Below are positions 1 through 17,712 of a stretch of 64,000 nt of DNA, piece after piece; within the stretch, counting starts at the first letter, position 1, and each line of letters starts with the position of its first letter. The stretch lies in sequence record NC_028248.1. One strand, 5' to 3'. The DNA comes from Escherichia phage slur16. Position numbers and translations under genes: made by a program. The notes under the pieces are model-generated. The model searched no databases. It was not told the DNA's origin and was given only the letters and a program-made list of their open reading frames with translations.

Positions 1-47
1 ATCCAGTGATAGTATCCACACATCGTTTGGAGAATATGGGATACACA

Positions 48-1596: not shown

Positions 1597-2165
1597 TCAG
1601 CCAGAAATATCTGAACAGGCCCAATTCTACCACGATTTTGACCTGACCTACAGGAGTGCTGCCAGGCGGACGAAATGGGAATACTTCTCATTCTTATAAC
1701 AATTCTCAAATATCAAGGCAGTGAGGCAAATTAATAGGCTAGGCCGTTCACACAGTGGCACAACATTTGCAACCTATCTTGTGGGGGTGAATGAGAATAC
1801 CTATCATTGTGAGAATAGTTATCATTACGGGCAATTTAACATAATACCCATTATGCGCACCACTGGCGATACATACAGGGATTGATAACATGGGTTACTG
1901 TTTACGCACATAACAATTATATTTCTTATTATTTGTGGGGGATATAGTTAGCAGCCGATAGATTAGATATTAACCTGCAGACTTCTGACCGTCCAGACGT
2001 CTAAACGCCCACACACCAAGGATTATACATACACTCCTGAATGTAAACAGGGCCGCAAAAATGCTACCATACAAGCTTGTAAATTTTTCATGCAGCACTT
2101 GACAAAGAGGAGGAAAACTTGTCTGACACTTTAGACACAATAGTGACACAATATGACATAATTGA

Positions 2166-2310
2166 CATGCATGACTGTTTACGCTCTCATTATTCACGCT
2201 ATTACTATTCACTCCCTTTACTATTCACGCTCTTACTGTTTACATGCTTAATAGTACACATGACCAATAGTTTACATAGCTAACTGTTCACGTATAGACT
2301 ATTTACACAA
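2166..2310. repeat. iteron-like tandem array (~8 copies of ~16-bp unit, consensus ACTRTTYACNC)
   Basis: Tandem units such as attattcacgc, actattcactc, actattcacgc, actgtttacatgc, agtttacatagc, actgttcacg, ctatttacac read directly. Confidence 0.5.
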
Positions 2311-2321
2311 AGATGATAAGA

Positions 2322-2577
2322 CATGCCATTCGTTTGCATGACAATAATTATACATGACAATAATCACACTGATTATAATTAGCATGACATAATATAAAAG
2401 CAGGGCAACTATTAGCAGATCTATAGTTGCCTTGCTTGTTATGTCATGATTAACTAAATACAAGGCAACTATGATCTGATTAATAGTTTGCAGACAAACC
2501 ATCACGGGGGTGATGGTTACTGCTTTTATATTATGTCGCGACTCCGTCGCGCCATGCCATTCGTTTGCATAGTTGCC
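2322..2577. repeat. 18-bp direct repeat pair bracketing three palindromes
   Basis: catgccattcgtttgcat at 2322-2339 and 2553-2570; palindromes ggcaactat/atagttgcc (2404-2431), aaccatca-cggggg-tgatggtt (2497-2518), cgcgac-tcc-gtcgcg (2536-2550). Confidence 0.5.
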
Positions 2578-3231
2578 TTATTGTTACGAATAAAACAATT
2601 GCATTGTTAATGATTTCTTATCTTTCTCTTAGTCATCTAATGATTCCAGTCAGTATAGTAATGTACAGTAAACATTAGACGACTAAAGATTTCTCTGTTT
2701 ATTATAACTCACCGTTATAATTTCGAGCTGTTTACGAAAAATGTTGACATCCTAGCCGATTTATGTTATGCAGTTTACACGAATAATTATTTTATGCAGG
2801 TATTGACTATTCCGTTATTCTATGGTTGGAATAAATACTTAGCAGGCTATAGACTGGTGAGCGTACGTAAATTCTGAGATCTGGCGGCTATAGTTATACT
2901 CGATTTTTCACGTAGAACACGCTTTTGTGGTTATGTAAGTGCATGACTTATAAAGATTTTTAGTTGTTGACAAGATATTGGAGATGTGCATCAGGTTAAA
3001 ATTTGTGCAATAGCGGCATTACGTGCAATTTTGGAAGGGAAAACGGGTAAAAATGGCCTTGCTACCACACAATGAAAAATTATGCAATAGTTATTTTCCA
3101 TGTATATTTGTACAGTGTGCGGGATTGATGGCTCGTCAATTATTCCACTTGCCAGGTAGGGCCGTTTATGGTAGGAAAAGAGAAGACAAAAAGAAAGGGG
3201 CTTTAAGCCCCTGACCGTTCATCTTGTTGTA

Positions 3232-3495
3232 TTATTTGTTGCTCATCCAGTTTTCCCAAGCTGCCTGATAATCTGCCTCACTACGGCGGATCTCTTCTTG
3301 TTCTTCAAGTCGGATCTCTTCTTCCAGGTACCCCAAGATGTCAGCCTTTTTGGTCTGGCGTAGCATCCAGTCATCTTTTTTGCGGGTAAAGATCTTATAA
3401 GCTTTCTCGCAAACCTCTTTTTTGCTACCTTTCTGGACTTCCAGAACACGATAAGCCATATATTGAACTAGTTTGAGCTGGTCAAGACGTTTCAT
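3232..3495 (-). CDS. hypothetical protein (87 aa)
   Basis: Track ORF; last gene of the minus-strand early array. Confidence 0.45.
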   Translation of the reverse strand: MKRLDQLKLVQYMAYRVLEVQKGSKKEVCEKAYKIFTRKKDDWMLRQTKKADILGYLEEEIRLEEQEEIRRSEADYQAAWENWMSNK

Positions 3496-3557
3496 GATGT
3501 TTTTCCTCTTTATGTGGTTTTTGTTTAGTGGGCCTTTTGGCCCGTGTCATTATCTTA

Positions 3558-3830
3558 TTACTTACGGCGGCAGAATTCAAGCGTTTTTAATTGATAATCT
3601 TCCTCAGCCTGGAGTACAACCGCCTCGATCATTTCGTTGGCATTGTTGAAGCCATACCCTTTAGCGAACTCATCCGCACCACCTTCGTGATCATGTTCTG
3701 CGTTCATCGCTTCCACGAAATGGAATTCAAGATTATTGAGATAAGGGCTTGATGTTCCGTCCTCTTTTTCGATGAGATCCCAAATAGCATTAAAACGTGA
3801 TTCGACTTCTTGATTAATCCAGCTTGACAT
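3558..3830 (-). CDS. hypothetical acidic protein (90 aa)
   Basis: Track ORF; preceded on minus strand by promoter, hairpin gggcacttttgcccc and AGAGAGGAAAA before ATG. Confidence 0.5.
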   Translation of the reverse strand: MSSWINQEVESRFNAIWDLIEKEDGTSSPYLNNLEFHFVEAMNAEHDHEGGADEFAKGYGFNNANEMIEAVVLQAEEDYQLKTLEFCRRK

Positions 3831-3883
3831 AATGTTTTCCTCTCTTCTGGTTGTTGTGTGGGCACTTTTGCCCCTTCAAGATA

Positions 3884-3912
3884 AATGTTACCCCACCACC
3901 TGGCAGATGTCA
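3884..3912 (-). promoter_or_regulatory. sigma70-like promoter (TTGACA-N17-TAACAT)
   Basis: Minus strand TTGACAtctgccaggtggtggggTAACAT; -35 = plus 3907-3912, -10 = plus 3884-3889. Confidence 0.4.
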
Positions 3913-3938
3913 ACGGTTTTTATAGTTCTTATATGACA

Positions 3939-3969
3939 GGCAGGCCCGGTGATTGTCTCCCCCCCCCCC
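3939..3969 (-). repeat. E-element copy C (inverted) ending in an 11-nt homopolymer tract
   Basis: Plus 3939-3961 is the exact reverse complement of 13530-13552 (23 nt); C run at 3959-3969. Confidence 0.55.
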
Positions 3970-4039
3970 GTCGCCAGGTGCCTGCCGTGTAATAAGTATA
4001 ACAAAAAACAGGACAAAAGCAAGCCCTGTTTTGTAAAGA

Positions 4040-4243
4040 TTAGATGATCTGCATATCCTCCACGATAATTTCTAATTTCCAAACAAGATGATCTAAGCTC
4101 CCTGATAAAAATGATTCCGATACATAACCGCCATCGGACACCGTAGCAAGGATCTCGCCATTTGCTTGCTCTTTGATTTGAACATCCAGGCGGTTAGCCT
4201 TTGCTTTGTTCAGGACGGCGATCAGGCGGTTAGCTGTAGTCAT
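4040..4243 (-). CDS. hypothetical protein (67 aa)
   Basis: Track ORF; followed on minus strand by hairpin acaggGCTTGCTTTTGTcctgt plus T-run. Confidence 0.45.
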   Translation of the reverse strand: MTTANRLIAVLNKAKANRLDVQIKEQANGEILATVSDGGYVSESFLSGSLDHLVWKLEIIVEDMQII

Positions 4244-4327
4244 GGTGTTTTCCTTTCAGTTGTGAGCGGCACCATTGCCGCCCTACGTGATACATCTTAC
4301 ACTATCAGATACATTGTGCAAGCTATT

Positions 4328-4519
4328 TTAGATCTCGTCACCTATATAATCAGATCTGTTCTTCTCTGTCATACGCTTAAGCAATTCCTGCATATAGCTT
4401 ATGGCTTGCAAGGTGTCTTCCTCCAGGCTTGAATCAACATAATCAGGATCATTCTCAACCTTGCTATAGTTATGATAGCGTAACGCTGCCAATACCTTTC
4501 TAACTTGTTCAACATTCAT
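4328..4519 (-). CDS. hypothetical protein (63 aa)
   Basis: Track ORF in co-directional array. Confidence 0.4.
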   Translation of the reverse strand: MNVEQVRKVLAALRYHNYSKVENDPDYVDSSLEEDTLQAISYMQELLKRMTEKNRSDYIGDEI

Positions 4520-4668
4520 TTTTATCGCTCTTTAAAACAAGGTGCCAACCGTTTCTAGTAGATCACTGACCACCAGGACAATACTGATCAGCACATATCT
4601 AACCATAAGGGGAAAGAGCGCCAGCGATCCCGCCACAATCCCCAAGGTAATGATTATCTTTTTCACGG

Positions 4669-4953
4669 TTAACGGTTAACGTAAGCTTTACCGTTCACGG
4701 TTATGGGTAGATCCTCCAGGTCTGGATCTTCCTTAAGGTCGCGAGCAAGCTCACCGCACCGGATACCCTCGAATCCGTAGTACTCTGTTGTACCGTCATT
4801 AAAAGTTTTAGCGGCAAGGCATAAGCGATAAGTAACCCCGATTTGATTGACGGCATGGATATCCGTTAGATCAACCTCTTTTGCCAGCTCTTTAGCCATT
4901 ACAGGCGCATTAAGTCCAACAACCAGGGCAACTACTGCGATCATCTTTTTCAT
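4669..4953 (-). CDS. hypothetical secreted protein (94 aa, N-terminal signal peptide)
   Basis: N-terminus MKKMIAVVALVVGLNAPVMA looks like a signal peptide. Confidence 0.5.
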   Translation of the reverse strand: MKKMIAVVALVVGLNAPVMAKELAKEVDLTDIHAVNQIGVTYRLCLAAKTFNDGTTEYYGFEGIRCGELARDLKEDPDLEDLPITVNGKAYVNR

Positions 4954-5270: not shown

Positions 5271-5375
5271 TTAACCGATACCGTGGGAAGATAGGATCAT
5301 GTTAGCCATAGTTGCAACCACTCCAACCGATAATGCCAGGCCAACTACTACAACCGTGAAAATTTTCTCTAACAT
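5271..5375 (-). CDS. small membrane peptide (34 aa; track version starts at 5474)
   Basis: Internal ATG at 5375 preceded by GAGGGT; the longer track start would overlap the upstream small ORF. Confidence 0.3.
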   Translation of the reverse strand: MLEKIFTVVVVGLALSVGVVATMANMILSSHGIG

Positions 5376-5458
5376 GATTCTACCCTCATTAATGGGCGTT
5401 GCCTTATTGCCCCGCCCTACGAAATACAGTCTATCAAGTAATAAACTATTGTCAAGAT

Positions 5459-5596
5459 TTATTTTACTTCCCAAACGGAAAATTCACTACCTGGCGGAAT
5501 CATCTTTTTAATCTTGTTTGCTGCTGCTACCAGATCCACGGCTTGTACTGTAATAATATAACCAATTGTCGAGGCTGTTGCGTTGAAAGTTTTCAT
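5459..5596 (-). CDS. small hypothetical protein (45 aa)
   Basis: Found by eye: promoter, hairpin gcgggaatacttcccgc, GAGGGT, ATG at 5596, TAA at 5459-5461. Confidence 0.3.
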   Translation of the reverse strand: MKTFNATASTIGYIITVQAVDLVAAANKIKKMIPPGSEFSVWEVK

Positions 5597-5644
5597 TAAA
5601 TTACCCTCATTAATGGCGGGAAGTATTCCCGCGCTATGTAGTAC

Positions 5645-5672
5645 ACTTTACCAGATTGTTGACTGTTGTCAA
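5645..5672 (-). promoter_or_regulatory. sigma70-like promoter (TTGACA-N16-TAAAGT)
   Basis: Minus strand TTGACAacagtcaacaatctggTAAAGT. Confidence 0.35.
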
Positions 5673-5678
5673 ACTATT

Positions 5679-5858
5679 TTAACGATAATCATCATATGCT
5701 TTATTGACCTGGCGAATATAACATTCAAAAGCTAGATCAATAGATTTATATTCACGGATATATTCACCATAGGAAACCACATACATTTCTATAGCTTCCT
5801 CATATGCGAGGAGAATAGAATCTAAGCCTACGATCTCAGTCTTTGCAATAATAGCCAT
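5679..5858 (-). CDS. small hypothetical protein (59 aa)
   Basis: Found by eye, just under track cutoff: ATG at 5858 (MAIIAKTEIVGL...), TAA at 5679-5681. Confidence 0.35.
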   Translation of the reverse strand: MAIIAKTEIVGLDSILLAYEEAIEMYVVSYGEYIREYKSIDLAFECYIRQVNKAYDDYR

Positions 5859-5935: not shown

Positions 5936-6169
5936 TCAACTATTTTCAAAAAATTTTTCTGCTGTGATATTTTTCCCGGTCGGATTTGCTACTTTCAAAA
6001 TTCTATCATGAACCGGACGCCCGAAAGAATAAGATCCGTATACAGTAAACCAATAATCGCCGTCAGGTTGTACTATTACCGCCGCATATGGTACGCCTTT
6101 TTCGTTTTTGCTGACAAAATAGATCACATTGCCATTAATAGCCTCAGCGCGTTTAATTTGTTCCATCAT
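5936..6169 (-). CDS. hypothetical protein (77 aa)
   Basis: Track ORF; hairpin ggggccttttcggcccc upstream. Confidence 0.45.
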   Translation of the reverse strand: MMEQIKRAEAINGNVIYFVSKNEKGVPYAAVIVQPDGDYWFTVYGSYSFGRPVHDRILKVANPTGKNITAEKFFENS

Positions 6170-6223
6170 GATGATTTACCTCTCTTTATTTTCATAATTG
6201 GGGCCTTTTCGGCCCCGCCAGGT

Positions 6224-6508
6224 TTATTTATTGATAGCGTGCAGCGGGAAAGGTACTCCAGGTTGATAGATAACTTTTACAACCTCATCAGGGCAAAAGA
6301 AATTGCAGAATTCACCCTGATAAGCCTCATCCTCTTTCAATTCTTCATCAACATACTCAAAAAAGTAGTCGATGCTTGGATAATCCTGGCCGGGATTATA
6401 GTCTACCATCGTTAATAACAATTCTTGATCATTCCGTAGGATATGCATACCCGCTTTTAAGTATTTTGCTTCCATTTCCACTACATCGCCAACGGTGATA
6501 ATAGCCAT
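6224..6508 (-). CDS. hypothetical acidic protein (94 aa)
   Basis: Track ORF. Confidence 0.45.
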   Translation of the reverse strand: MAIITVGDVVEMEAKYLKAGMHILRNDQELLLTMVDYNPGQDYPSIDYFFEYVDEELKEDEAYQGEFCNFFCPDEVVKVIYQPGVPFPLHAINK

Positions 6509-6709
6509 GATTTTAACTCCTATCTATCCGGTTAATGATTGGGGGCCGCCCCCCTGACACGTCCTATTATCCATATTGTAGGACTTGATGCAAGTACTTC
6601 TTTAAAAATTTTTTAAGCGCCTTGGGGCCGCTGTAACGCTAAAATAATAAAGGCCATGCAACCGCATAGCCTTTATGTGATTATATCGCTGCAGGCCCTG
6701 CCTGGGGCC

Positions 6710-7060
6710 TTATTTTGCATTCTTGCCTGTATTGCCGCCACGGTACCAGCGTTTGCGGTGAAAATGGTAATAATCACCCTCGGCATTAAACATCAGATGA
6801 TTTTCAATAACCAGCTTACGAAGGTGGGCCGGATCTTGTTCCATTCTTGCCAGATTCCGGCGGCTGTTACGTAAACGTATAAATTCCATATTCAGGCCGT
6901 TGATTGCAGCATGGATGTCAAAGTAACCCCCTTTGAGACGTTCACGCATGGCGTTAAGCTCAACACAATATGCAGATTTCTCACAAATCAAGGTATTAGC
7001 TAGGGCGCGGACCTGGGCAAGGGGGTTAAGCTCATTAAGGTAGTATAGTTTGACTTTCAT
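6710..7060 (-). CDS. hypothetical protein (116 aa)
   Basis: Track ORF. Confidence 0.45.
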   Translation of the reverse strand: MKVKLYYLNELNPLAQVRALANTLICEKSAYCVELNAMRERLKGGYFDIHAAINGLNMEFIRLRNSRRNLARMEQDPAHLRKLVIENHLMFNAEGDYYHFHRKRWYRGGNTGKNAK

Positions 7061-7077
7061 AAAATCACCTGCTGAAA

Positions 7078-7386
7078 TTAGTTTGAGAAAACATCGTTCA
7101 CAATAGCGATCACAATGCCGCCCACCTTGTCACGGTCAACAATGCACAAATCGCCATGGATCATGCGGTAGTCTGGATGATCTTTCACAGAATAGTCAAT
7201 AAGTGTTTTCTTGTCGTCCAGCTTCGTAACTTCCATTCTCATAACGATATGAGAATCATCAAAGGCATTATTCCGAAAAGTCATAGCCTGACCGCCAGGG
7301 CACCCGGTGATCTCCACTTCCACACCGTCTACGATCTGACCATCAAAGAAATAAAGATTATTAGCCTGGATAAACATGTCTATCAC
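7078..7386 (-). CDS. hypothetical protein (102 aa)
   Basis: Track ORF; 45-bp hairpin element lies ~40 nt upstream of its start. Confidence 0.45.
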   Translation of the reverse strand: MIDMFIQANNLYFFDGQIVDGVEVEITGCPGGQAMTFRNNAFDDSHIVMRMEVTKLDDKKTLIDYSVKDHPDYRMIHGDLCIVDRDKVGGIVIAIVNDVFSN

Positions 7387-7425
7387 TCCTTGTTAACTGC
7401 GTGGTATTTTTAACAGGGTTTAAAT

Positions 7426-7470
7426 TTACTTTATTGATGGCCCTGGAGTCAAGGCCATCTAAAAATAAAT
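7426..7470 (-). repeat. 45-bp intergenic hairpin element, copy 1
   Basis: tttactttattGATGGCCctggagtcaaGGCCATCtaaaaataaa; 7-bp stem GATGGCC/GGCCATC; starts 2 nt after the upstream gene stop. Confidence 0.55.
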
Positions 7471-7471
7471 T

Positions 7472-7672
7472 TTACAGGCCTACAATCTCTTTGATTCGTT
7501 TAACCGCTGCCTCAGCGCCTTGGGGGTAAAAATTATGGTAACCAATCACGCGAGTGATACTAATCGCCGTTTGATGATCTTCATAGTCGCCCTTGAAGAT
7601 TTCTTGACCGTCAATCAGCACGGCAATTTTTTCTTCTTTTTTGAAGTTAATAACGCGGATATTGTTGCTCAT
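7472..7672 (-). CDS. hypothetical protein (66 aa)
   Basis: Track ORF. Confidence 0.45.
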   Translation of the reverse strand: MSNNIRVINFKKEEKIAVLIDGQEIFKGDYEDHQTAISITRVIGYHNFYPQGAEAAVKRIKEIVGL

Positions 7673-7812
7673 TTTGTTTCTCCTTTCTGGTTTTTGTGGT
7701 GGTGGGGATTAGCTCCCCGTTGATTGTTATTATCCACATTCCGGACCGGATTGCAACACCCCGGAAGAATTTTTTTTTTAAAAGATAGGCCCCCATGATC
7801 GGGGGGCCGTTC

Positions 7813-7932
7813 TTAGTTACTTACAGCGATAAAGTACATCCCTACCCCTAACAATATTTCAAGGGCGATGATCTCAAGCCATACCATAACACGGCGCGCC
7901 TTATCGGTGCGGGGCTTATCCTTGGGTGTCAT
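7813..7932 (-). CDS. small membrane peptide (39 aa)
   Basis: Found by eye: ATG at 7932 (MTPKDKPRTDKARRVMVWLEIIALEILLGVGMYFIAVSN), TAA at 7813-7815. Confidence 0.25.
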   Translation of the reverse strand: MTPKDKPRTDKARRVMVWLEIIALEILLGVGMYFIAVSN

Positions 7933-7952
7933 CGTCTCCCCCTTTCCCCCTG

Positions 7953-8174
7953 TTAGTAGTGACGTGGTTTACAATGGCCCCCAGGAGTACCATCACTACG
8001 CACACCACAAGAAAAATTATCTCTGTCGTTGTTCGATCCATTGTTATAAAATTCCTCAAGATCAGGCTTGAAAATAAAGCGTTCGTTATTGAATCCATCA
8101 CGCCAGGCGGCTGGCTTCAAATCTTCACTAAAGGGATTAATTAACGTGGCATTATTTAAACGGTTGGCCCACAT
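7953..8174 (-). CDS. hypothetical protein (73 aa; track start 8192)
   Basis: GAGAGGAA 8 nt upstream of the ATG at 8174. Confidence 0.35.
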   Translation of the reverse strand: MWANRLNNATLINPFSEDLKPAAWRDGFNNERFIFKPDLEEFYNNGSNNDRDNFSCGVRSDGTPGGHCKPRHY

Positions 8175-8556
8175 ATTTTCTATTCCTCTCAAATAGGCGA
8201 TCCGCCTCAGTTAAACATATCTCATGGGCTTGATCTCTGGTTTTAGCCTCATCGAAAACTTGTTGTGCCAGGCTGCAGCGTAGGGAGACTGGAAGATCAC
8301 TATAATAGGCGTTGACAAACGTTTGAGCGTCGTACAGGTCTGAAAATACTTTACCCTTTCTATTATTCCCCTTGTCAACAATTGCAAGGATAACAAGCAC
8401 AATAGTTGCAACCACCCCCAGGAAAATAGATATAATAAACCATAAAAAGGCGGATCTACCCATCTTGCCAGCGATCCAGGCGTTGAACAAGGCAACTACT
8501 ACAGCCAAAATAATAAATTCCATTCTATGTACCTCTTTTGCAGTTCTGTTTAACAA
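8152..8556 (-). CDS. hypothetical membrane protein (134 aa)
   Basis: Two hydrophobic segments near the N-terminus. Confidence 0.45.
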   Translation of the reverse strand: MLNRTAKEVHRMEFIILAVVVALFNAWIAGKMGRSAFLWFIISIFLGVVATIVLVILAIVDKGNNRKGKVFSDLYDAQTFVNAYYSDLPVSLRCSLAQQVFDEAKTRDQAHEICLTEADRLFERNRKYVGQPFK

Positions 8557-8587
8557 TAAGGCGGCAAATATGCCGCCTGTTACCTGA

Positions 8588-8968
8588 TTAAAAATTATCG
8601 CCGTAAATCTTTCCGCTTTCTGCCCACACCACCACGCGGGGCATGTTATCCCATACGTCTTGTTTTAGATTGAGCGCGTGCAATTCTTCGGTGGTGCCCA
8701 TACCGGGCACGGGCTGATTGTATACTGCAAAACGACCACCCGCATAGTCATAGGCCAGGGTTAAATCACACTGGATCATCTTTTTGATCATGGCGTTGAG
8801 CATAGCGTTAGCCGCATACTGGTCACGTTTTAGGGGCAACTCTTTGATTAGTTTGCGATAGTTTTCAATGTGATCGCACACTGTTTCACGTGGAAGATCT
8901 TTCATATCTTCACGGAATGTAACCAGGTTAAACATAACGGTGTCAATAGCCTTGGTAGTGTTTTTCAT
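8588..8968 (-). CDS. hypothetical protein (126 aa)
   Basis: Track ORF. Confidence 0.45.
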   Translation of the reverse strand: MKNTTKAIDTVMFNLVTFREDMKDLPRETVCDHIENYRKLIKELPLKRDQYAANAMLNAMIKKMIQCDLTLAYDYAGGRFAVYNQPVPGMGTTEELHALNLKQDVWDNMPRVVVWAESGKIYGDNF

Positions 8969-9057
8969 AATGTTTTCCTCTTTGTTTTGTGTGGGGCAAA
9001 CGTCTTGCCCCCTTGAGTTTTAATATAGCAGGTTTTTAGGTTATTGCAACACTTTAT

Positions 9058-9681
9058 TTATGAAAAAGTCATCTCGCCATATTCATCCACATCAAACCGC
9101 CAATCATTGGCCTCAATAAGGCCGATCAGGTTTTCGGTAGTAAACTGTTCAAGATAGGCCTCCTCCAGGTCTACGTAAACCTTGCGGGATAGCTCCCGTA
9201 CCGTCTCGGTGATCAGCTCTTCCAGGTCTTCCACTTTGTTTTCTTGTTTGGCGGTCAGATCTAGCCAGGTGGTATCAATGTATCCGCTTACAGTGTTTTC
9301 GTGACTATAGCGGCTATATGGATCACGCTCAACACTGGCTGATAACTCGCCATCGTGCATTGTGCCGAACAAGTGACGAATTGATCGGAACTTGGTCAGG
9401 GCCTTTACTTTACGCAAAAATTTTTCTAAATCCACGTTTTCAGCACTGATTGACGCGCCGTCACCCTGGCACCAAAAGCCTGACCAATGTACTTCGGTAT
9501 CTTCAAGGCCATACTCTGGAAAAACATATTCTTTATAGTATTCAATTACACTTTCTGCAAAAAAGTTATCCCCGCTGTGTTCTTCTCTTTCGCGGACCAT
9601 TTCAACGGCTTTTTCTTTTTGTTCGTCGGTCAGCACGTCGAAAGATAAATTGTAACCTGCGGTAATGTTAACGGTGGTCAT
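9058..9681 (-). CDS. hypothetical acidic protein (207 aa)
   Basis: Strongly Asp/Glu-rich; promoter, hairpin ggcgggaaaaattcccgcc and GGAGA upstream. Confidence 0.5.
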   Translation of the reverse strand: MTTVNITAGYNLSFDVLTDEQKEKAVEMVREREEHSGDNFFAESVIEYYKEYVFPEYGLEDTEVHWSGFWCQGDGASISAENVDLEKFLRKVKALTKFRSIRHLFGTMHDGELSASVERDPYSRYSHENTVSGYIDTTWLDLTAKQENKVEDLEELITETVRELSRKVYVDLEEAYLEQFTTENLIGLIEANDWRFDVDEYGEMTFS

Positions 9682-9738
9682 GATATTTTCTCCTATTTTC
9701 TTTGTTAGTGGCGGGAATTTTTCCCGCCTGTGTGTTTA

Positions 9739-9766
9739 AGTATACTTATTGAGGCTTACTTGTCAA
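9739..9766 (-). promoter_or_regulatory. sigma70-like promoter (TTGACA-N16-TATACT)
   Basis: Minus strand TTGACAagtaagcctcaataagTATACT. Confidence 0.4.
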
Positions 9767-10016
9767 CACTATTTTTTAAATTATTGTGGCGTAAAATGTT
9801 TAGAATCTCTTCAACGTCATCAACACGGCGGCAATTTTTAAACGCTACCAATTGCCCCCGGATCTTAATCACTGGGCGGCCTTGCCAGTGCCCCTGGAGA
9901 AAGCGCGCTTTAACTTTATCGGTGGAACTATCACGCCACCAAACGGCCTTATTATTGCAGTAGTAAAAATTATTCAGGACAACATCGACTTTATCAAAAT
10001 TTTTTAATTTACGCAT
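9756..10016 (-). CDS. hypothetical protein (86 aa)
   Basis: Track ORF; GAAAGGAG before ATG. Confidence 0.4.
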   Translation of the reverse strand: MRKLKNFDKVDVVLNNFYYCNNKAVWWRDSSTDKVKARFLQGHWQGRPVIKIRGQLVAFKNCRRVDDVEEILNILRHNNLKNSVDK

Positions 10017-10051
10017 GGCGTTTACTCCTTTCTTCTTGCTTTGATGTGGTT

Positions 10052-10080
10052 AGTATATCCAGGCGATTCCAAGGTGTCAA
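10052..10080 (-). promoter_or_regulatory. sigma70-like promoter (TTGACA-N17-TATACT)
   Basis: Minus strand TTGACAccttggaatcgcctggaTATACT. Confidence 0.4.
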
Positions 10081-10250
10081 GCTTTAAATAAAAGATATTT
10101 TTAACACCATAAAACGGTCCTGGGTGATGTTTTCAGGCTAAGAAAGGGGATTGCATAGGTAGGGGCTTTTGTGGCGTTTGTGGGGCCAACCAGGGGCGCT
10201 ATTCGTAGGATAGAAATAAAAAGCCCCGCACAATGGCGGGGCGTTGGTTG

Positions 10251-10472
10251 TTATTTGCCTTTGTGGCGGTATCGTTCCGCCTGTCGTTCACGTTCCAAAA
10301 GCAGGCCCGGTAATTTGCGATCATAGTGATTCCTCCAGATCTTCCCGAACCTTTTCGGTTTATTCAGTTTATTGTTACGCTGGCGGCGTTCCGGCAGCTC
10401 TTCGGAATCGTGGGGGCGCTTTACAATTTTTTCGAAATTAATTTTCATAAATTTCCCCTTTACTAATTTCAA
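10251..10472 (-). CDS. hypothetical basic protein (73 aa)
   Basis: Track ORF, Lys/Arg-rich; overlaps upstream gene 3-prime end. Confidence 0.3.
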   Translation of the reverse strand: MKLVKGKFMKINFEKIVKRPHDSEELPERRQRNNKLNKPKRFGKIWRNHYDRKLPGLLLERERQAERYRHKGK

Positions 10473-10791
10473 TATTTGCCTGAATCGCCCGGATACGACG
10501 TTTTATGACCTCCTGATCCTTGCAATCATATCCCCAAAAGTCTACGATCTTTGCGCCTCCGGCCTTTAGGCGGTATAGTGTTTCCTGCATCTTGTAAGCT
10601 GGGATCGGTCGCGGTGTTACCTGGTCGCCTCTCTCATCTTTGTACTTGATTATGTAGTCTTCGTTGTCGTTGAATACCCAAAATGGGTATTCTGTGAGCG
10701 CGTTGCTATCTTTTTCGTTTTTAGATTGGATCTTGTTTACAATTAAAGCCGTAGCAATAGCGCCAATAATAAAACTAGCCCCGCTGATCAT
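10438..10791 (-). CDS. hypothetical membrane-anchored protein (117 aa; track start 10854)
   Basis: AAGGAG 6 nt upstream of the ATG at 10791; N-terminal hydrophobic helix. Confidence 0.4.
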   Translation of the reverse strand: MISGASFIIGAIATALIVNKIQSKNEKDSNALTEYPFWVFNDNEDYIIKYKDERGDQVTPRPIPAYKMQETLYRLKAGGAKIVDFWGYDCKDQEVIKRRIRAIQANIEISKGEIYEN

Positions 10792-10819
10792 GTACTTTCT
10801 CCTTTCATGGTGTTGATAA

Positions 10820-10865
10820 ATTATCTTTATAGATGGCCCTGCAGCCAGGACCACCGAAAAAATAA
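10820..10865 (-). repeat. degenerate copy of the 45-bp intergenic element
   Basis: ttatctttatagatggccctgcagccaggaccaccgaaaaaataa shares the ctttatagatggccctg half; palindrome not preserved. Confidence 0.35.
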
Positions 10866-11111
10866 CTATTTCACAATGCCTACAAAACAGATCCCGCCTT
10901 CACCTATATAAGCAATATCGGTCACTTTATAACTTGTCAAGATCTGCTTATTTAGTTCATTAATAAAATCGGTCATTGCGTTGGTGTAGTTGTCTTCCGT
11001 GTCTAAGGCATAATCCCAGGTGTACACCTTTTTACGTCCGAAGCCTTTTACCATGATACGGGCGCTTTTGGTGTTGGTAGGGGCATAATATTTGGTGATT
11101 AGTGCTGCCAT
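10866..11111 (-). CDS. hypothetical protein (81 aa)
   Basis: Track ORF; AGGAG before ATG. Confidence 0.45.
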   Translation of the reverse strand: MAALITKYYAPTNTKSARIMVKGFGRKKVYTWDYALDTEDNYTNAMTDFINELNKQILTSYKVTDIAYIGEGGICFVGIVK

Positions 11112-11154
11112 GGTTTTAACTCCTATGCATTAGTTCAGTGTTAACAGTATAAAG

Positions 11155-11198
11155 TTTACTTTATAGATGGCCCTGGTGTCAAGGCCATCTAAAAATAA
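11155..11198 (-). repeat. 45-bp intergenic hairpin element, copy 2
   Basis: tttactttataGATGGCCctggtgtcaaGGCCATCtaaaaataa. Confidence 0.55.
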
Positions 11199-11200
11199 GC

Positions 11201-11542
11201 TTACTCGTTTTCTTCCAGCTCCGCAAGCTCTTCTTTTGCTTCTTCTAACTCTGTCTGTAATTCCTGGTATTCTTCATCGTCCTCAATATCCAGGCTGTCG
11301 ATGTAGTCGCTAAATCCGCAGCGGTAAGCGATAGGATCTAGCTCCTTGAGGATACGCGACGGAAGAAAAGAAATGTTTCCGATCATAATTTCGCCGTAGA
11401 TCTCGTCTAACCATTCATCATAGTTTTCGTCGTACTTGTCCTCGTCGATTTCAAAGTTATCGATCTTATTCTCAAGGTCTGCGATCTGTTTTTTCAGTTC
11501 AGCGATCTGCATAGCTTTTTCTGAGGCGGTCATAGTAGTCAT
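11201..11542 (-). CDS. hypothetical acidic coiled-coil protein (113 aa)
   Basis: Heptad-like N-terminus, very acidic C-terminus (…EEAKEELAELEENE); near-consensus promoter upstream. Confidence 0.5.
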   Translation of the reverse strand: MTTMTASEKAMQIAELKKQIADLENKIDNFEIDEDKYDENYDEWLDEIYGEIMIGNISFLPSRILKELDPIAYRCGFSDYIDSLDIEDDEEYQELQTELEEAKEELAELEENE

Positions 11543-11593
11543 GGTGTTTTTCTCCTTTTGTGTGTTCTGGGAAGTTTTCCCGTTTATGTGCTT

Positions 11594-11621
11594 ATTATAT
11601 CGATTTAAGTTAGCTTGTCAA
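11594..11621 (-). promoter_or_regulatory. sigma70 promoter, near consensus (TTGACA-N16-TATAAT)
   Basis: Minus strand TTGACAagctaacttaaatcgaTATAAT, then hairpin gggaaaacttccc and GGAGA. Confidence 0.5.
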
Positions 11622-11741
11622 TTAAAAGTTTAAGAAAAATTTTGCGACACCGTTGGCGCTACCCATCAACATTTGCGCCAGGATGTACCCAATGATGCAA
11701 ACGATGATGGTTACCTTTGTGTGCTGGCGTGTAGTGCTCAT
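11622..11741 (-). CDS. small membrane peptide (39 aa)
   Basis: Found by eye: GGAGG then ATG at 11741 (MSTTRQHTKVTIIVCIIGYILAQMLMGSANGVAKFFLNF). Confidence 0.3.
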   Translation of the reverse strand: MSTTRQHTKVTIIVCIIGYILAQMLMGSANGVAKFFLNF

Positions 11742-11775
11742 CTTTAAGCCTCCTTTTCCGCTCAACTGTGGTTAG

Positions 11776-11820
11776 TTTACTTTATTGATGGCCCTGGTGT
11801 CAAGGCCATCTAAAAATAAA
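11776..11820 (-). repeat. 45-bp intergenic hairpin element, copy 3
   Basis: tttactttattGATGGCCctggtgtcaaGGCCATCtaaaaataaa; ends 2 nt before the upstream gene stop. Confidence 0.55.
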
Positions 11821-11821
11821 C

Positions 11822-12217
11822 TCAATAAGTTTTTAGTACTTTCCCGTCCAATCTGTCAAGCTGGATCTCAATAGCTGCAGAAAATCTATTGTAAACCACA
11901 TCGCCCAGGGAGTCCAGCCAATCTATGACGTTATACACCTGCTCTTTATTCTTGCAAGTCCGGATCCGTTTCATTACGTAAGACGGATCAATATTAGCGC
12001 TCTCGTTGTTGTGGTCCTGCGCCTGGCCTGCTGCGCTAGTTATAGATTTTACAACCACCTGAAAGGGCTTTAAGGTGCCTTTTGCGTTCATCTCACGCGC
12101 TTTTGCGGCGCGGTTGTTATATGTTACACAACGGCGGCAAATGTTGACCAAATGCATATCAATAATTTTTTCATCGTTTGCCAGTTCGTTCATGATGCGG
12201 CGTACGTTCTTATTCAT
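11822..12217 (-). CDS. hypothetical protein (131 aa)
   Basis: Track ORF; promoter, hairpin ggcgggaaacatcccgcc and AGAGGAAA upstream. Confidence 0.5.
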   Translation of the reverse strand: MNKNVRRIMNELANDEKIIDMHLVNICRRCVTYNNRAAKAREMNAKGTLKPFQVVVKSITSAAGQAQDHNNESANIDPSYVMKRIRTCKNKEQVYNVIDWLDSLGDVVYNRFSAAIEIQLDRLDGKVLKTY

Positions 12218-12262
12218 AGCTTTTCCTCTGTGTTGGCGGGATGTTTCCCGCCTTTTGTGCCT

Positions 12263-12290
12263 AGTTTACTTGAATTTTGCAGCGTGTCAA
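12263..12290 (-). promoter_or_regulatory. sigma70-like promoter (TTGACA-N16-TAAACT) with A-tract upstream
   Basis: Minus strand aaaaaaaaaaaaattaTTGACAcgctgcaaaattcaagTAAACT. Confidence 0.45.
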
Positions 12291-12304
12291 TAATTTTTTT
12301 TTTT

Positions 12305-12703
12305 TTATTCGTGGGCGCATGTTACAATGTGCTTTTTATAGCCCAAGTGGTTAGCAAGTGCCGCCAAAAACTCTTCTTCATAGATCCAGCCGTCGGCAGT
12401 GATTCCCATGGCACTTAATGCGCTTTCAAGTGCAGCGTTGGCTTTATCATAACCGTGACCGCTCGCCTTGCCGCCAGTATAACCGTACTTATTGTTCTTG
12501 TTGTCGTGAATCCAAAATACACAGTAATGAGTGTTACCGCTGGCGGCGGCATAATACCGGATCTCAGCTACTTCGTGCAAATTATTGTCATCGTCCAGGC
12601 CCACCAGATTATAGGCCTTGTAGAATCCGCGATCACGGCGGCAGCTTTTAACATCAGAAAAAGAGAAGTCAGCATTATTAAAATTAAAGGTTGTGGTTTT
12701 CAT
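12305..12703 (-). CDS. hypothetical protein (132 aa)
   Basis: Track ORF; AAGAGGA before ATG. Confidence 0.5.
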   Translation of the reverse strand: MKTTTFNFNNADFSFSDVKSCRRDRGFYKAYNLVGLDDDNNLHEVAEIRYYAAASGNTHYCVFWIHDNKNNKYGYTGGKASGHGYDKANAALESALSAMGITADGWIYEEEFLAALANHLGYKKHIVTCAHE

Positions 12704-12735
12704 GATTTTATCCTCTTAGTGTCTTTTGTGCTTTC

Positions 12736-12764
12736 AGTATATTTTGTTTCAGACTGTATGTCAA
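12736..12764 (-). promoter_or_regulatory. sigma70-like promoter (TTGACA-N17-TATACT)
   Basis: Minus strand TTGACAtacagtctgaaacaaaaTATACT. Confidence 0.4.
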
Positions 12765-12767
12765 TAC

Positions 12768-12965
12768 TTATTTTTTATTAAACCAGTGGTTGATCTGACC
12801 TTTTGTCAGGGCGCAACGATTAAGCTGTTGCAGGGTATAGCTATGACCGCGACGAAATTTATAAAGGCCTTGCCCGTTGTTGATGGTTACATCCACCCGG
12901 CAAATCACTTGATTGGTGACCACCTGGCGAGTGTTGCGACGTGCTTTGATTCCGTATGCGTTCAT
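12768..12965 (-). CDS. hypothetical basic protein (65 aa)
   Basis: Track ORF; AGAGAGGATAA before ATG. Confidence 0.35.
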   Translation of the reverse strand: MNAYGIKARRNTRQVVTNQVICRVDVTINNGQGLYKFRRGHSYTLQQLNRCALTKGQINHWFNKK

Positions 12966-13259
12966 GATTTCTTATCCTCTCTGTTAATTAGTGTGGTGTT
13001 GTTCACCTTGCGAGAATAAGAATAACAAGAACTGTCCGAGCTGTCAACCACTATGCAAAATTATTTTTGGGCAAAATTCTCCAGCCGCCGCCCCTGCCAG
13101 GTTAACCACCGTTTTCGTACTCTTCTTTATGTTCCGGTGCTTCCGTTTTAGCCTTCTCGACCAGGGCGATAGCTTCCGTATCATCAATTACTATTTTCCA
13201 GGTGAGTAGCATTACCTTTCATTTTTGTACCTCTTCTGTAGCTGTTCACTTTATAGCGC

Positions 13260-13560
13260 GGACCTGCCAGGTTGGCCCCGCCAGGTCCCGACAGTGGGCG
13301 CACCTGGTTATAATTTTTTTTTTGAAAGGTGTTGACAGCGGCCCCGCCAGGTGGCACAATATACCTATCGAAAGGACGGCAGGCACCGGTGACGGGGGAG
13401 ACAACCACCGGAGATGGGCGCTGCGTAAAATGAGAACGGTTATCATTATCATTTAAAAATTTATGCAAAAAATCCTTGCTTTCTTTGTCCTGTGTGATAC
13501 TATAATAACAAGCCGGGGCAACAGGGGCCGGGAGACAATCACCGGGCCTGCCCGTTATTC
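13260..13560 (+). promoter_or_regulatory. promoter-like cluster with ccaggt boxes and two direct E-element copies
   Basis: ggccccgccaggt exact at 13274-13286 and 13340-13352; TTATAAT at 13308-13314; TTGACA at 13333-13338; TATAAT at 13501-13506; E cores at 13394-13411 and 13530-13552. Confidence 0.4.
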
Positions 13561-13699
13561 TGCAAACGAGAATGATTATCATTCAAAATTCTAAATGAGA
13601 ACTCCTCGCATTTAATAAATTTAATTAGCATGCTAATTACCCTCCGTAACAATTTCCTATAAAACAGTATCCCATAAAATATTCCCATATAGAAATTTT

Positions 13700-13890
13700 A
13701 AAAATCCATTTCTGAAAACGAAAAATCGATTTCGTCCCCAAAAATTTCAGGTCGAGATCCGGAACGATTTCCAGAAAATCCGATTTAGAAAACGAAAAAC
13801 AGATCGAGTACTGAGAAATTTATCGAGAAAAATTTTCAGAAAATCCAAGCCATGAAATGAAAAGTAGATCGAGTACTGGAAAAATTGTAC
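13700..13890. repeat. degenerate tandem repeats (~3 copies, period ~65 bp)
   Basis: agaaaatccgatttagaaaacgaaaaacagatcgagtactgagaaa vs agaaaatccaagccatgaaatgaaaagtagatcgagtactggaaaa; aaaatcc box also at ~14045 and ~14132; inverted repeat atcaggag/ctcctgat at 14124-14158. Confidence 0.5.
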
Positions 13891-14185
13891 CGCAACCCAC
13901 TGATAGTGATGGGTTTTCCGTCATAAATCACTAAGAGTGAGTGGAGAAAGGTATGGTGGAGAGGTGTGTATGTGTGGGAAATCTGTAATGGTGGCCTGAA
14001 ATATGGTGCAAACGGCTAGATAGATTGGCACAATTTTCCGCGCCTGTGTTGAAAAAATCCATTTCAGTTTTCGATCCATTTTCTGATTTTCTAAGAATTT
14101 TAAAATATCTATGTGTTCAAAATATCAGGAGAAAATCCATTTTAGAAATTCTCCTGATTTCTGGCAACTTGGCAATTTAAAAATA

Positions 14186-14518
14186 TCAGGTGCCCAGTTT
14201 GTTCTTTCCTTTATATAAACGCAAGGGTATAGTTTTTGTAACAGTCCACCTTCCTACACCTTCCCAGTTCCAGTTGTAGGCATGGTACCCGGTTACGCAT
14301 GCACTGCTAGAGTGGTCATAGGCATAAGAGAACGCTATACGCACCAGGTGGGGCCAGTCCTTCCATGGTTGTGGTCCGTAAGCTTTTCTCCAACACCGAC
14401 ACAAACTAAATGTCTCAAGAATAGGTAGGATAACAAATCCATACACCGCCACCAGAATAGCCAGCGCAATGATTGTCAGGAATACATACCCTGCAGTTGA
14501 AACGATGATCTCTGTCAT
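14186..14518 (-). CDS. hypothetical membrane protein (110 aa)
   Basis: Long N-terminal hydrophobic segment. Confidence 0.45.
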   Translation of the reverse strand: MTEIIVSTAGYVFLTIIALAILVAVYGFVILPILETFSLCRCWRKAYGPQPWKDWPHLVRIAFSYAYDHSSSACVTGYHAYNWNWEGVGRWTVTKTIPLRLYKGKNKLGT

Positions 14519-14712
14519 TTGTCGTCCCCTTTCTTACGAATATAGATGTGAGAGCCTGCCTGTATATAAATTTCTCGACCATCCTCTGCAAAGATATGAA
14601 ATACACGATCACCTTCGTACTCGATACGAGATATCTTCATAATGGTCTTTCCACCTGGGATACGGATCTCGTCCCCCACAGCGATGTTCCATGCAGATTT
14701 AAGCTTAAACAT
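14515..14712 (-). CDS. hypothetical protein (65 aa; track start 14778)
   Basis: AAGGAAGG 5 nt upstream of the ATG at 14712 gives a short overlap with the upstream gene. Confidence 0.4.
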   Translation of the reverse strand: MFKLKSAWNIAVGDEIRIPGGKTIMKISRIEYEGDRVFHIFAEDGREIYIQAGSHIYIRKKGDDK

Positions 14713-14950
14713 CTGCACCTTCCTTTGGGAGCTCGAACTCTGGCATAGCCATATACGCCACAACAGGGTTGTAATCAAAGTAGAAATGACCGTTAATTAT
14801 CCCAGTTTTGTGAGCATAGTCACCAGATCCTGCAAGAACAACCTCGCAAACTCCGAAATCAACCTTGCCATTCTCATCTGCCATGGCTACAATATACTTT
14901 CCTAGAGGTATGTTTTTAACGCCGTCTACAAATGTCCACCCTTTGTTCAT
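14705..14950 (-). CDS. hypothetical protein (81 aa)
   Basis: Track ORF. Confidence 0.45.
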   Translation of the reverse strand: MNKGWTFVDGVKNIPLGKYIVAMADENGKVDFGVCEVVLAGSGDYAHKTGIINGHFYFDYNPVVAYMAMPEFELPKEGADV

Positions 14951-14971
14951 AACTTTATCTCCTGGACTTTC

Positions 14972-15304
14972 TTAAGGTAACCAGTAAACAATTTCGCCTT
15001 TCAGTTCCATGTCGTTACCGACATAGATTTTCCAGCCATCCATTTTAGCCACTGCAGGAGTGAAGTCCGAAGAACCACTAACCTCTTTCCAAGTCCCGTA
15101 GTCAGGTTGCCAGATATAGAATCCACCTTCCTTGTCCCATGCTCCATATACCACATCGAGCAGGTTGCCCATTGCAACAATAGTAGGCCGTGGGAATAAT
15201 ACATCTACAGATGCACCACAATTTCGGGTAGATTTTAAATTACAATTCCAAAAGATGTCTGCCAGTGTGGCGGCAATAGCTTTACGTCTTTCCAATGTTA
15301 CCAT
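14972..15304 (-). CDS. hypothetical protein (110 aa)
   Basis: Track ORF. Confidence 0.45.
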   Translation of the reverse strand: MVTLERRKAIAATLADIFWNCNLKSTRNCGASVDVLFPRPTIVAMGNLLDVVYGAWDKEGGFYIWQPDYGTWKEVSGSSDFTPAVAKMDGWKIYVGNDMELKGEIVYWLP

Positions 15305-15311
15305 ATCATAC

Positions 15312-15503
15312 TCACTTGTTGTTAATAAGTTCTAAAACTTTCTGTCTTACTTTGTCAAGGTCTGTGGATTCAAAAACTGTACGGTATCCCCAACTTTGCC
15401 CATAGGAGTGACTGCAATCCCCGTAGCACCATTGCTCAATTTGATAGTATTCAAGGAACGGGTGCTGTCTAACTATGATACCATCTCGGTTAAAAATTAC
15501 CAT
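15312..15503 (-). CDS. hypothetical protein (63 aa)
   Basis: Track ORF. Confidence 0.4.
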   Translation of the reverse strand: MVIFNRDGIIVRQHPFLEYYQIEQWCYGDCSHSYGQSWGYRTVFESTDLDKVRQKVLELINNK

Positions 15504-15566
15504 AATACATCGCTCTCTGTTAGTTTATGCGTATATTATACACTGCAGTTTTCAGATGTCAACCTC

Positions 15567-15818
15567 TTACAGATTGCTCCAGTACAATCGGCATTTACAT
15601 TTTGGGCAATGAGGTTCTTTTATATAATAACCATCAGTCTTTGGAACACTTTTTGGTGCAGTTTTAAGATTGTACCTGGTAAAACATCGGAAGCAGGTTA
15701 CCTCTCCCACCTGTTGATCGTTGATCCACTCACCAGAGTAAAGTTCTTTCTTGTTTCTCATAATTCTCTCCCAAATCATCTGCAATCTTATACCAAAATC
15801 TCCAGCCAGAAAGCACAC
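15567..15818 (-). CDS. hypothetical zinc-ribbon protein (83 aa)
   Basis: CxxC…CPKCKC cysteine pattern. Confidence 0.4.
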   Translation of the reverse strand: MCFLAGDFGIRLQMIWERIMRNKKELYSGEWINDQQVGEVTCFRCFTRYNLKTAPKSVPKTDGYYIKEPHCPKCKCRLYWSNL

Positions 15819-16012
15819 GGGAACACTTTGAGGATTGAATCTTTACTTGGCTCGGAAGTTCTTTTTCCGTATGGTAGGTAGAAATACTCTCCTGCAGATT
15901 CGAATATAGCTCCTTCGGTTGTATCTACCACAGCAAGAATTAAGATTTTAGTCTCCACAGTGCTCTCCTCTCTTAGTTGTTGTGGAGACTATATCACCTC
16001 AGAAGATGGTCG

Positions 16013-17665: not shown

Positions 17666-17690
17666 TTTTCAGATCTTCTTATACAAAAAT

Positions 17691-17712
17691 GCCCCACCCT
17701 TTCGGGCAGGGC
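17691..17712 (-). terminator. intrinsic terminator-like hairpin
   Basis: Minus strand gccctgcccgaaagggtggggc followed by atttttg; identical 22-mer at 28457-28478. Confidence 0.5.

Follow-up and report, generated by a model that had tools for sequence, protein, structure and literature searches.

In the 64,000-nt stretch of the Escherichia phage slur16 genome analyzed here (NC_028248.1; called the window below), an element of ~50 nt occurs in four copies between small genes, all on the minus strand, which is the coding strand in this region. We found that the element is real and under selection. In the best explanation, to which we assign a probability of about 0.55, it is a composite hairpin-plus-promoter cassette of the early gene cluster of rV5-like phages, analogous to the promoter-early stem-loop (PeSL) of T4-like phages. 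An earlier note on this DNA had described the copies as hairpins following stop codons and had offered an RNA processing site, a phage-specific promoter or a regulator site as candidate functions. Its reading was partly supported by our analysis, and it had missed the promoter reading and the recombination role described below.

A repeat search revealed one repeat family with four members, at 7423-7471, 10819-10867 (73% identity; the degenerate copy), 11153-11201 and 11774-11822. Pattern searches gave 3 to 4 matches in the window vs 0 in shuffled sequences. A covariance model built from 38 distinct instances found just four sites in the 64-kb window, scoring 69.7-80.8 bits on the minus strand and 29.9-43.4 bits on the plus strand, and no diverged extra copies beyond these four were detected there with the filters off. 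The coordinates previously given for the copies proved correct. On the minus strand, a stop codon (7472, 10866, 11201 and 11822) precedes every copy by 0-3 nt, and the end of the copy lies 28-47 nt ahead of the next ATG (7378, 10791, 11111 and 11741), where an AGGAG-type Shine-Dalgarno (SD) sequence is found, in agreement with the placement proposed earlier, at minus-strand stops and shortly before the next start. The ATG at 11741, after copy 3, is the start of a 39-aa hydrophobic open reading frame (ORF). The copies and their promoter-like sequences are as follows.

7419..7472, minus strand: copy 1, hairpin from the stop of the 66-aa gene (7472-7672); upper-helix core 7436-7459; 80.8 bits
7452..7423, minus strand: promoter-like sequence of copy 1, TTGACT (7452..7447)-N18-TAAATT (7428..7423); next ATG 7378
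10815..10868, minus strand: degenerate copy, after the 81-aa gene (10866-11111); next ATG 10791; 69.7 bits
11149..11202, minus strand: copy 2, after the 113-aa gene (11201-11542); core 11166-11189; next ATG 11111; 77.3 bits
11182..11153, minus strand: promoter-like sequence of copy 2, TTGACA (11182..11177)-N18-TAAACT (11158..11153)
11770..11823, minus strand: copy 3, after the 131-aa gene (11822-12217); core 11787-11810; 78.0 bits
11803..11774, minus strand: promoter-like sequence of copy 3, TTGACA (11803..11798)-N18-TAAACT (11779..11774)

Escherichia phage slur12 is 100% identical to window 7000-12000, and ~120 rV5-like phages (genus Vequintavirus) show 94-99% identity to the same region. The four positions are retained in nearly all of these ~120 genomes. 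Across orthologues the element is almost invariant, whereas the flanking coding sequence and the 5' untranslated region (UTR) vary. The distribution is confined to this one genus plus one transfer. A host origin, as for REP-like (repetitive extragenic palindromic) sequences, was not indicated, as 5,426 complete E. coli genomes and the GTDB species genomes contained no match. Scans of IMG/VR and of JGI metagenomes for diverse copies gave 2 and 4 relevant loci, respectively, and most of the IMG/VR 17-mer matches were chance matches. An Rfam search of window 6000-16000 at E ≤ 1 revealed no family matching the element, and we found no description of it in the literature on rV5-like phages. The repeat_region annotated in phage isim is not the element; it sits within the 113-aa gene. 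The same Rfam search gave a sub-threshold match to the Clostridium-PBP RNA at 8966-9036 on the minus strand (36.8 bits vs a gathering threshold of 94.4, E = 0.049), which is almost certainly due to chance and overlies the intergenic hairpin GGGGCAAGACGTTTGCCCC.

On the coding strand, the element reads, in order, stop codon, UUUAUUUUU, (UA), GAUGGCCUUG, ACAC, CAGGGCCAUC, (AAU) and AAAGUAAACU. All four copies share one fold, in which a 2x3 internal loop separates a 10-bp lower helix of A/U pairs from a G/C upper helix, also of 10 bp, that is capped by a tetraloop. The folding energies lie between -23.6 and -25.8 kcal/mol and the z-scores between -4.8 and -7.2. The hairpin is thus far longer than the 7-bp palindrome GATGGCC/GGCCATC by which its extent had been described. 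This palindrome, TTGACA and TAAAGTAAA had also been reported for all copies; the statement holds for three of them, with TTGACT in copy 1, and fails for the degenerate copy, which has GGTGGTCC...GGGCCATC, CTGGCT and TAAAGATAA.

We gathered 75 instances of the element from 21 loci (GenBank phages, IMG/VR and metagenomes), comprising 41 distinct sequences, and counted pairing in the 38 that are free of indels. In these 38 instances, 98.2% of the cells are paired in the shared structure, vs 35-56% when the partners are slid. Four pairs of the lower helix are altered on both sides. Two adjacent lower-helix pairs are swapped in the degenerate copy relative to the other three (A-U to U-A and U-A to A-U), and among genomes the degenerate copy also alternates between U-A and C-G. 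This copy retains the two-helix hairpin by means of G·U pairs and one U·G-to-C-G change. The upper helix shows only single changes that preserve pairing (A-U to G·U, C-G to U·G, U·G to C-G and G-C to G·U). The pairing depends on the strand: 98% of the cells are paired on the coding strand vs 87% on the opposite strand, and 98% vs 79% for the degenerate copy, with 95 G·U cells vs 10 A·C cells. The covariance model likewise scores the minus strand ~35 bits above the plus strand. Because of the covariation, the G·U asymmetry, the strand-biased covariance score and the conservation above the flanks, the data argue for a hairpin encoded in the coding-strand RNA and not for a symmetric DNA operator. 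We consider it likely that this hairpin is functional at the RNA level.

The same DNA resembles a sigma70 promoter in three of the copies. A promoter scan identified TTGACA-N18-TAAACT in copies 2 and 3, matching the consensus at 10 of 12 positions, and TTGACT-N18-TAAATT in copy 1, matching at 9 of 12; the distance from -10 to ATG is 32-44 nt, and these values describe a match to the consensus, not activity. The scan result contradicts the earlier judgment that the spacing of TTGACA does not fit sigma70. TTGAC is invariant in copies 1 to 3, where variation affects the sixth base of the -35 hexamer (A, T or G) and the loop base that follows it. The degenerate copy carries CTGGCT in place of TTGACA, three of its four loop bases (CTGG..) vary freely, and any promoter in it is probably weak at best.

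Further evidence came from sister phages. In the phi92-like phage UAB_1, the block AAAATAAAGTAAACT forms the spacer and -10 of TTGCAA-N16-TAAACT and is followed by a 5' UTR hairpin, a ribosome-binding site (RBS) and a gene. Klebsiella phage FKP3 carries the same block as UAB_1, within TTGACA-N16-TAAACT, and a different bipartite hairpin there spans from the stop codon to across the -35. In both phages, the position of AATAAAGTAAACT with respect to the 5' UTR and RBS is as in the element. The architecture of a hairpin over the -35 followed by AAAGTAAACT therefore recurs with an unrelated stem sequence. Promoter P194 of rV5 likewise uses TAAACT, and neighboring gaps of the window carry cassettes of stop codon, TTGACA, N16/17, TAnnnT, hairpin and RBS. 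Because UAB_1, FKP3 and P194 use this block or hexamer, the 3' third of the element appears to be a -10 module that sister phages use at the usual 16-nt spacing. This homologous -10 block is the strongest evidence for a promoter, and we judge it rather probable that copies 1 to 3 are active sigma70 promoters.

Phage-type promoters were also considered. A T4-late-type promoter (TATAAATA) was rejected, as the TATAAA-like motif is not conserved and the first base of (T/A/G)ATAAAGT is T, A or G depending on the genome. A T4 MotA box is absent, and an N4-type hairpin promoter was rejected on the basis of stem and loop size. The phage-specific promoter suggested in the earlier note is thus unsupported; the hexamers look like those of an ordinary host sigma70 promoter, and the -10 block serves promoters with 16-nt spacers in the sister phages.

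The element also lies at the boundaries of exchanged DNA. Two segments of the window are involved.

11202..11773, minus strand: unit between copies 3 and 2 (small ORF, consensus promoter and 113-aa gene)
11155..11622, minus strand: cassette of promoter P192, 113-aa gene and element, shared with phage KKE7M

Three genomes (magaca, ECP32 and one IMG/VR contig) have a single hybrid element, with the context of copy 3 upstream and that of copy 2 downstream. These genomes lack a 621-bp unit comprising the 39-aa ORF, P192, the 113-aa gene and one element copy. For magaca and the IMG/VR contig, blastn gave two alignments to the window that have exactly the 49 nt of the element in common. Phage KKE7M, a Justusliebigvirus belonging to another subfamily, shares just window 11622-11155, at 93.6% identity, and comparison with its relative UAB_1 showed that the cassette stands in place of a different gene. 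The left crossover in KKE7M falls in the shared promoter TTGACAAGATAACTAAAATC (TTGACAAG.TAACT.AAATC) and the right one within AATAAAGTAAA(C/T)T. Copies within a genome share identical loop variants more often than expected (19 pairs vs 12.7 expected, p = 0.013), which suggests gene conversion. The comparisons show the element to be a substrate of homologous recombination, by which cassettes are deleted, inserted and moved between subfamilies and the copies are homogenized.

Not every loss nearby fits this pattern. In rV5_ev146, an rV5 derivative, the loss of copy 3 and the 131-aa gene was not mediated by the element, the junction overlap being 10 nt; the deletion corresponds to window 11730-12228, and similarity to the window also ceases beyond 10301. 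The protein encoded on the mobile cassette (11204-11542, minus strand; 113 aa) has an acidic tail and is a widespread small phage protein of unknown function. Its distant homologues, with 35-50% identity, occur in Vibrio, Klebsiella, Serratia, Aeromonas, Pseudomonas (PAK_P5/KPP10-like), Stenotrophomonas and Pelagibacter phages; the search with this protein taught us nothing about the element.

The element region is a series of small minus-strand ORFs of unknown function. In the promoter scan, these early-cluster ORFs alternate with near-consensus minus-strand sigma70 promoters (TTGACA-N16/17-TATAAT or TATACT), and a terminator scan placed a few canonical terminators within the cluster as well. 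In rV5, the early cluster is transcribed by the host polymerase (PMC3606486), and the run of small ORFs in the window is this cluster. The signals that frame the element copies are listed here.

11594..11621, minus strand: consensus sigma70 promoter TTGACA-N16-TATAAT (P192 of the rV5 paper), from the promoter scan
12263..12290, minus strand: sigma70 promoter TTGACA-N16-TAAACT (P194 of the rV5 paper), from the promoter scan
10223..10242, minus strand: canonical intrinsic terminator GCCCCGC...GCGGGGC, then TTTTTATTTC, from the terminator scan

Transcripts starting from P192 (11621) would cross copy 2 and the degenerate copy, and the terminator at 10242..10223 closes the transcription unit that holds these two copies. 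P194 and the element have identical -10 hexamers, and transcription from P194 proceeds into copy 3.

In the proposed mechanism, the hairpin would start at the upstream stop codon, as supported by sequence comparison, and would form only in read-through transcripts from an upstream promoter, because the element's own start site would fall 3' of the hairpin. It would mark the 3' end of the upstream message, where RNase III-type processing, the most plausible mechanism, would leave a protective 3' hairpin as at T7 R0.3 to R1.3. In three of the four copies, the same DNA would be a sigma70 promoter, TTGAC(A/T)-N18-TAAA(C/T)T, as consensus and homology suggest. Its -35 coincides with the apex of the hairpin and its -10 falls within the lower helix, on the 3' arm, and it would restart transcription for the next gene. 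The ~50-bp repeat around shared promoter motifs is also a site for homologous recombination.

The early RNase III sites of phage T7 (R0.3, R0.5, R1, R1.1 and R1.3) were reportedly described by Dunn and Studier. When folded, these five sites gave a G/C-rich upper helix of 9-10 bp capped by a 4-5-nt loop, then an internal loop and below it a second helix; none has a U-run, and all are located between early cistrons. The shape of the element hairpin (10 + 10 bp with a 2x3 internal loop) matches the folds of R0.3 to R1.3. By analogy, the need of RNase III for roughly 20 bp (~two turns) of double-stranded RNA would explain the compensatory upkeep of the weak A/U helix. Processing is preferred over a plain exonuclease barrier because a barrier needs only the G/C helix, yet the A/U helix is maintained. 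Of the three functions proposed earlier, RNA processing thus stays viable and best suits the hairpin half, in view of the covariation, the G·U asymmetry and the T7-like geometry. That RNase III specifically acts on the hairpin is a tentative suggestion, which we hold with less than even confidence. We regard as doubtful a bolder version, a 'cut-and-restart' module in which the RNA reading would end and stabilize the upstream message through an RNase III cut in the internal loop and the DNA reading would start the next one, such that each small early gene would be an autonomous portable unit. Such a module might be a general linker for early genes between subfamilies, because it ends in promoter motifs common to Vequintavirinae and Stephanstirmvirinae.

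Several observations weigh against the cassette reading. For the promoter half, the 18-nt spacer is suboptimal and most genomes have TTGACT, not TTGACA. Chance often yields matches of at least 9/12 (shuffled sequences had 44.8 per 20 kb, counting both strands), with a chance of ~3% for a coding-strand sequence of the size of the element. For the hairpin half, the outer two pairs of the lower helix have 6 unpaired cells each. The genomes are at least 90% identical and the four copies are paralogous, so the covariation represents few independent events, mostly those that set the degenerate copy apart from copies 1 to 3. The likeness to the T7 sites is one of shape only, with no matching Rfam family. 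The rV5 paper lists the element in neither its promoter nor its terminator table, and we found no RNA-end, RNase III, promoter-activity, transcription start site, Term-seq or RNA-seq data for Vequintavirus in the literature.

Some of these observations would be expected if the element acted purely in RNA, as an RNase III site, an exonuclease barrier or a protein-binding site, with the hexamers being incidental by-products of the stem and the A/U arms. The degenerate copy keeps the hairpin and not TTGACA, the suboptimal spacer and the ~3% chance of a 9-10/12 match fit such an origin, and the -10 lies wholly inside the 3' arm of the lower helix, where pairing alone could conserve it. However, AATAAAGTAAACT is the -10 region of promoters with 16-nt spacers in UAB_1 and FKP3, and in copies 1 to 3 the two loop bases that complete TTGAC (A11 and C12) do not vary, whereas the loop of the degenerate copy is free at three of four bases. 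The AC of TAAACT in the 3' arm is fixed although its 5' partners change in copy 2, and the elements occupy sites where each neighboring gene has a promoter. We consider a purely RNA-level element unlikely. An intrinsic (rho-independent) terminator or attenuator is improbable. The hairpin is stable, G/C-rich and directly follows stop codons, 45-nt 'terminator' features mark copy 1 and the degenerate copy in the GenBank record of phage Murica (KT001917), and a PeSL stem-loop cut lacZ expression as strongly as rrnB T1 (PMC2839356). However, as noted earlier, there is no U-run; a 3' U-tract is absent after the upper or the full helix in both orientations, and the flanks, 5' U-rich and 3' A-rich, are the reverse of those of a terminator. 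The 3' flank is AAUAAAGUAAAC, and no copy appeared in the terminator-scan output, which does contain the canonical U-run terminators nearby. Efficient termination would also silence the gene 3' of the degenerate copy, which has no good promoter of its own and meets a canonical terminator only at 10242..10223; the promoters at 12290 and 11621 lie upstream, with read-through across the copies. The Murica labels look like software calls on a strong hairpin because there is no U-tract and the downstream genes need read-through; the annotation of phage HdK5 leaves the copies unlabeled, and the rV5 tables made no such call either.

A DNA operator was also weighed, in which the palindrome AGATGGCC-N8-GGCCATCT over the -35 would serve as the binding site of a dimeric protein, from phage or host, and its occupation would shut off these early promoters. 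Three copies do have a perfect 7-9-bp inverted repeat centered on the -35, and the early-to-late switching of rV5 is unexplained (PMC3606486). However, the degenerate copy and several variants pair only through G·U, which amounts to asymmetric changes in DNA, and the degenerate copy thus pairs as coding-strand RNA and is not a DNA palindrome. Compensatory changes also occur in the A/U flanks, over another 10 bp, which exceeds the length expected of an operator, the centers of the half-sites are ~17 bp apart and do not both lie on one helical face, and no candidate regulator was identified. The regulator site of the earlier note is therefore disfavored, and we regard it as very improbable. Least probable of all is a functionless repeat, selfish or resembling a miniature inverted-repeat transposable element, that was spread by duplication or gene conversion and is tolerated between genes. 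The confinement to one genus plus one transfer and the homogenization of copies within genomes would fit such a repeat. However, the four positions are held in nearly all of the ~120 genomes, conservation of the element exceeds that of the coding sequence beside it, the old diverged copy keeps its structure via compensatory changes, and there are no target-site duplications, no transposase and only four copies.

The cassette reading finds its closest parallel in the PeSLs described in T4-like phages RB49/phi1, PST and nt-1 (Arbiol et al. 2010, PMC2839356; Comeau et al. 2014, PMC4122927). A PeSL combines a stop-codon region rich in A/T with a sigma70-like promoter and a stem-loop, and ends at the SD and ATG; the stem-loop lies between, over or beside the hexamers, and PeSLs are concentrated in plastic regions where ORFs are shuffled by recombination (PMC2839356; PMC4122927). 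Excised mini-circles and measured activities as promoter and attenuator are further features of PeSLs (PMC2839356). Similarly, our element is intergenic in a plastic early region of small ORFs and extends from a stop codon in an A/T-rich stretch to the SD and start. It has candidate sigma70-like -35 and -10 hexamers and a stable stem-loop able to overlap the -35, as in one of five PeSL subclasses, and it is a crossover point for the insertion, deletion and replacement of ORFs between related phages. Measured against the defining features of a PeSL, the architecture and the recombination are present, copies 1 to 3 have putative promoter hexamers matching at 9-10 of 12 positions, and the degenerate copy is without a -35. 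In contrast to PeSLs, the element belongs to the Vequintavirus lineage (with a transfer to Justusliebigvirus) and has no sequence similarity to them; it has a bipartite 20-bp helix with an A/U lower stem and GAUGGCCUUG/CAGGGCCAUC, where the PeSL stem is GGGG...CCCC, and it has an 18-nt spacer and only four copies of this sequence family. Because it is unrelated to PeSLs in sequence and lineage, the element appears to be an analogue and not a homologue, alike in architecture. Among the PeSL-like early cassettes, the four-copy element is a subclass with the hairpin over the -35.

Other known systems are more distant. The T7 RNase III sites lie likewise between cistrons of an early operon transcribed by the host RNA polymerase, resemble each other, span about two helical turns, have no U-tract and share their intergenic gaps with promoters. 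However, there is no sequence homology, the internal loop is 2x3 here and about 4x5 in T7, the lower helix is longer and purely A/U here, and the T7 hairpins contain no promoter hexamers. Rho-independent terminators also place a stable G/C-rich hairpin right after the stop, but here there is no 3' U-tract, the A/U flanks are misordered and downstream genes need read-through. REP/BIME-type intercistronic hairpins (BIME, bacterial interspersed mosaic element) protect upstream mRNA from 3' exonucleases. Like them, the element is a repeated intergenic palindrome transcribed within operons and could stabilize the upstream segment; unlike them, it is phage-specific, unrelated in sequence, present in four copies and in none of the E. 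coli or GTDB species genomes searched. In phage N4, the hairpin promoters of the virion RNA polymerase carry a 3-nt loop on a stem of 5-7 bp and depend on the phage enzyme. They share with the element a promoter tied to a DNA hairpin, whereas the element has a 10 + 10 bp stem, a 4-nt loop and sigma70-type hexamers. To our knowledge, no phage RNA polymerase is known in rV5-like phages.

Phages of the rV5-like and phi92-like groups find wide use in phage therapy and in biocontrol and are represented in the BASEL collection, and their early transcription has never been mapped. Recognition of the cassettes corrects annotation, as two copies are called 'terminator' in one record and are unlabeled in others. 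The cassettes also predict transcript boundaries for ~10 early genes of unknown function and explain the recurrent presence/absence polymorphism of the 113-aa gene unit. They provide a base-resolution record of promoter motifs as crossover points for the movement of early genes between subfamilies. This extends the modular-shuffling model of PeSLs beyond T4-like phages and introduces no new kind of mechanism.

A second group of gaps in the early cluster follows a stereotyped plan of stop codon, TTGACA-N16/17-TAnnnT, 7-10 nt, a 5' UTR hairpin GGCGGG(A)n..CCCGCC, RBS and ATG. Such gaps are located at 5373-5461, 5594-5681, 9679-9758 and 12215-12309 on the minus strand of the window. The early regions of the phi92-like phages KKE7M and FKP3 are filled by the same plan, with nearly the same hairpin sequence. 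These gaps look like a second, larger PeSL-like family.

Other observations concern the records and the rest of the window. Seventeen 'Campylobacter phage' GenBank records (MG0656xx) have 94-99% identity to E. coli Vequintavirus genomes here, and at least one of them (A147) is flagged UNVERIFIED; further records match the phi92-like group, and the 'Campylobacter' host labels appear doubtful. The slur12 GenBank record stops at the equivalent of window 4875, and the window continues beyond it (1-4874). Because it extends past the end of that record, the window is a differently permuted or joined copy of the genome. A stretch of ~550 bp at ~13630-14190 has no gene annotated in slur12. It contains three imperfect 65-nt direct repeats at 13683-13886 (62-74% identity) and long A/T-rich inverted repeats. 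This stretch, which probably corresponds to the box marked 'non-coding' on the rV5 map, is a candidate for a replication origin or a regulatory region. Near-identical pairs of G/C-rich hairpins, GCCCCACCCTTTCGGGCAGGGC and CCCCGCCGAAGCGGGG, lie 10-26 kb apart, at 17686-17712 and 28452-28478 and at 36493-36520 and 62739-62766, and at least the first is terminator-like with a T-run. Finally, direct repeats at a constant offset of ~2.06 kb with 84-87% identity (55300-55361 with 57358-57419, and 55801-55830 with 57874-57903) suggest two tandem paralogous genes.

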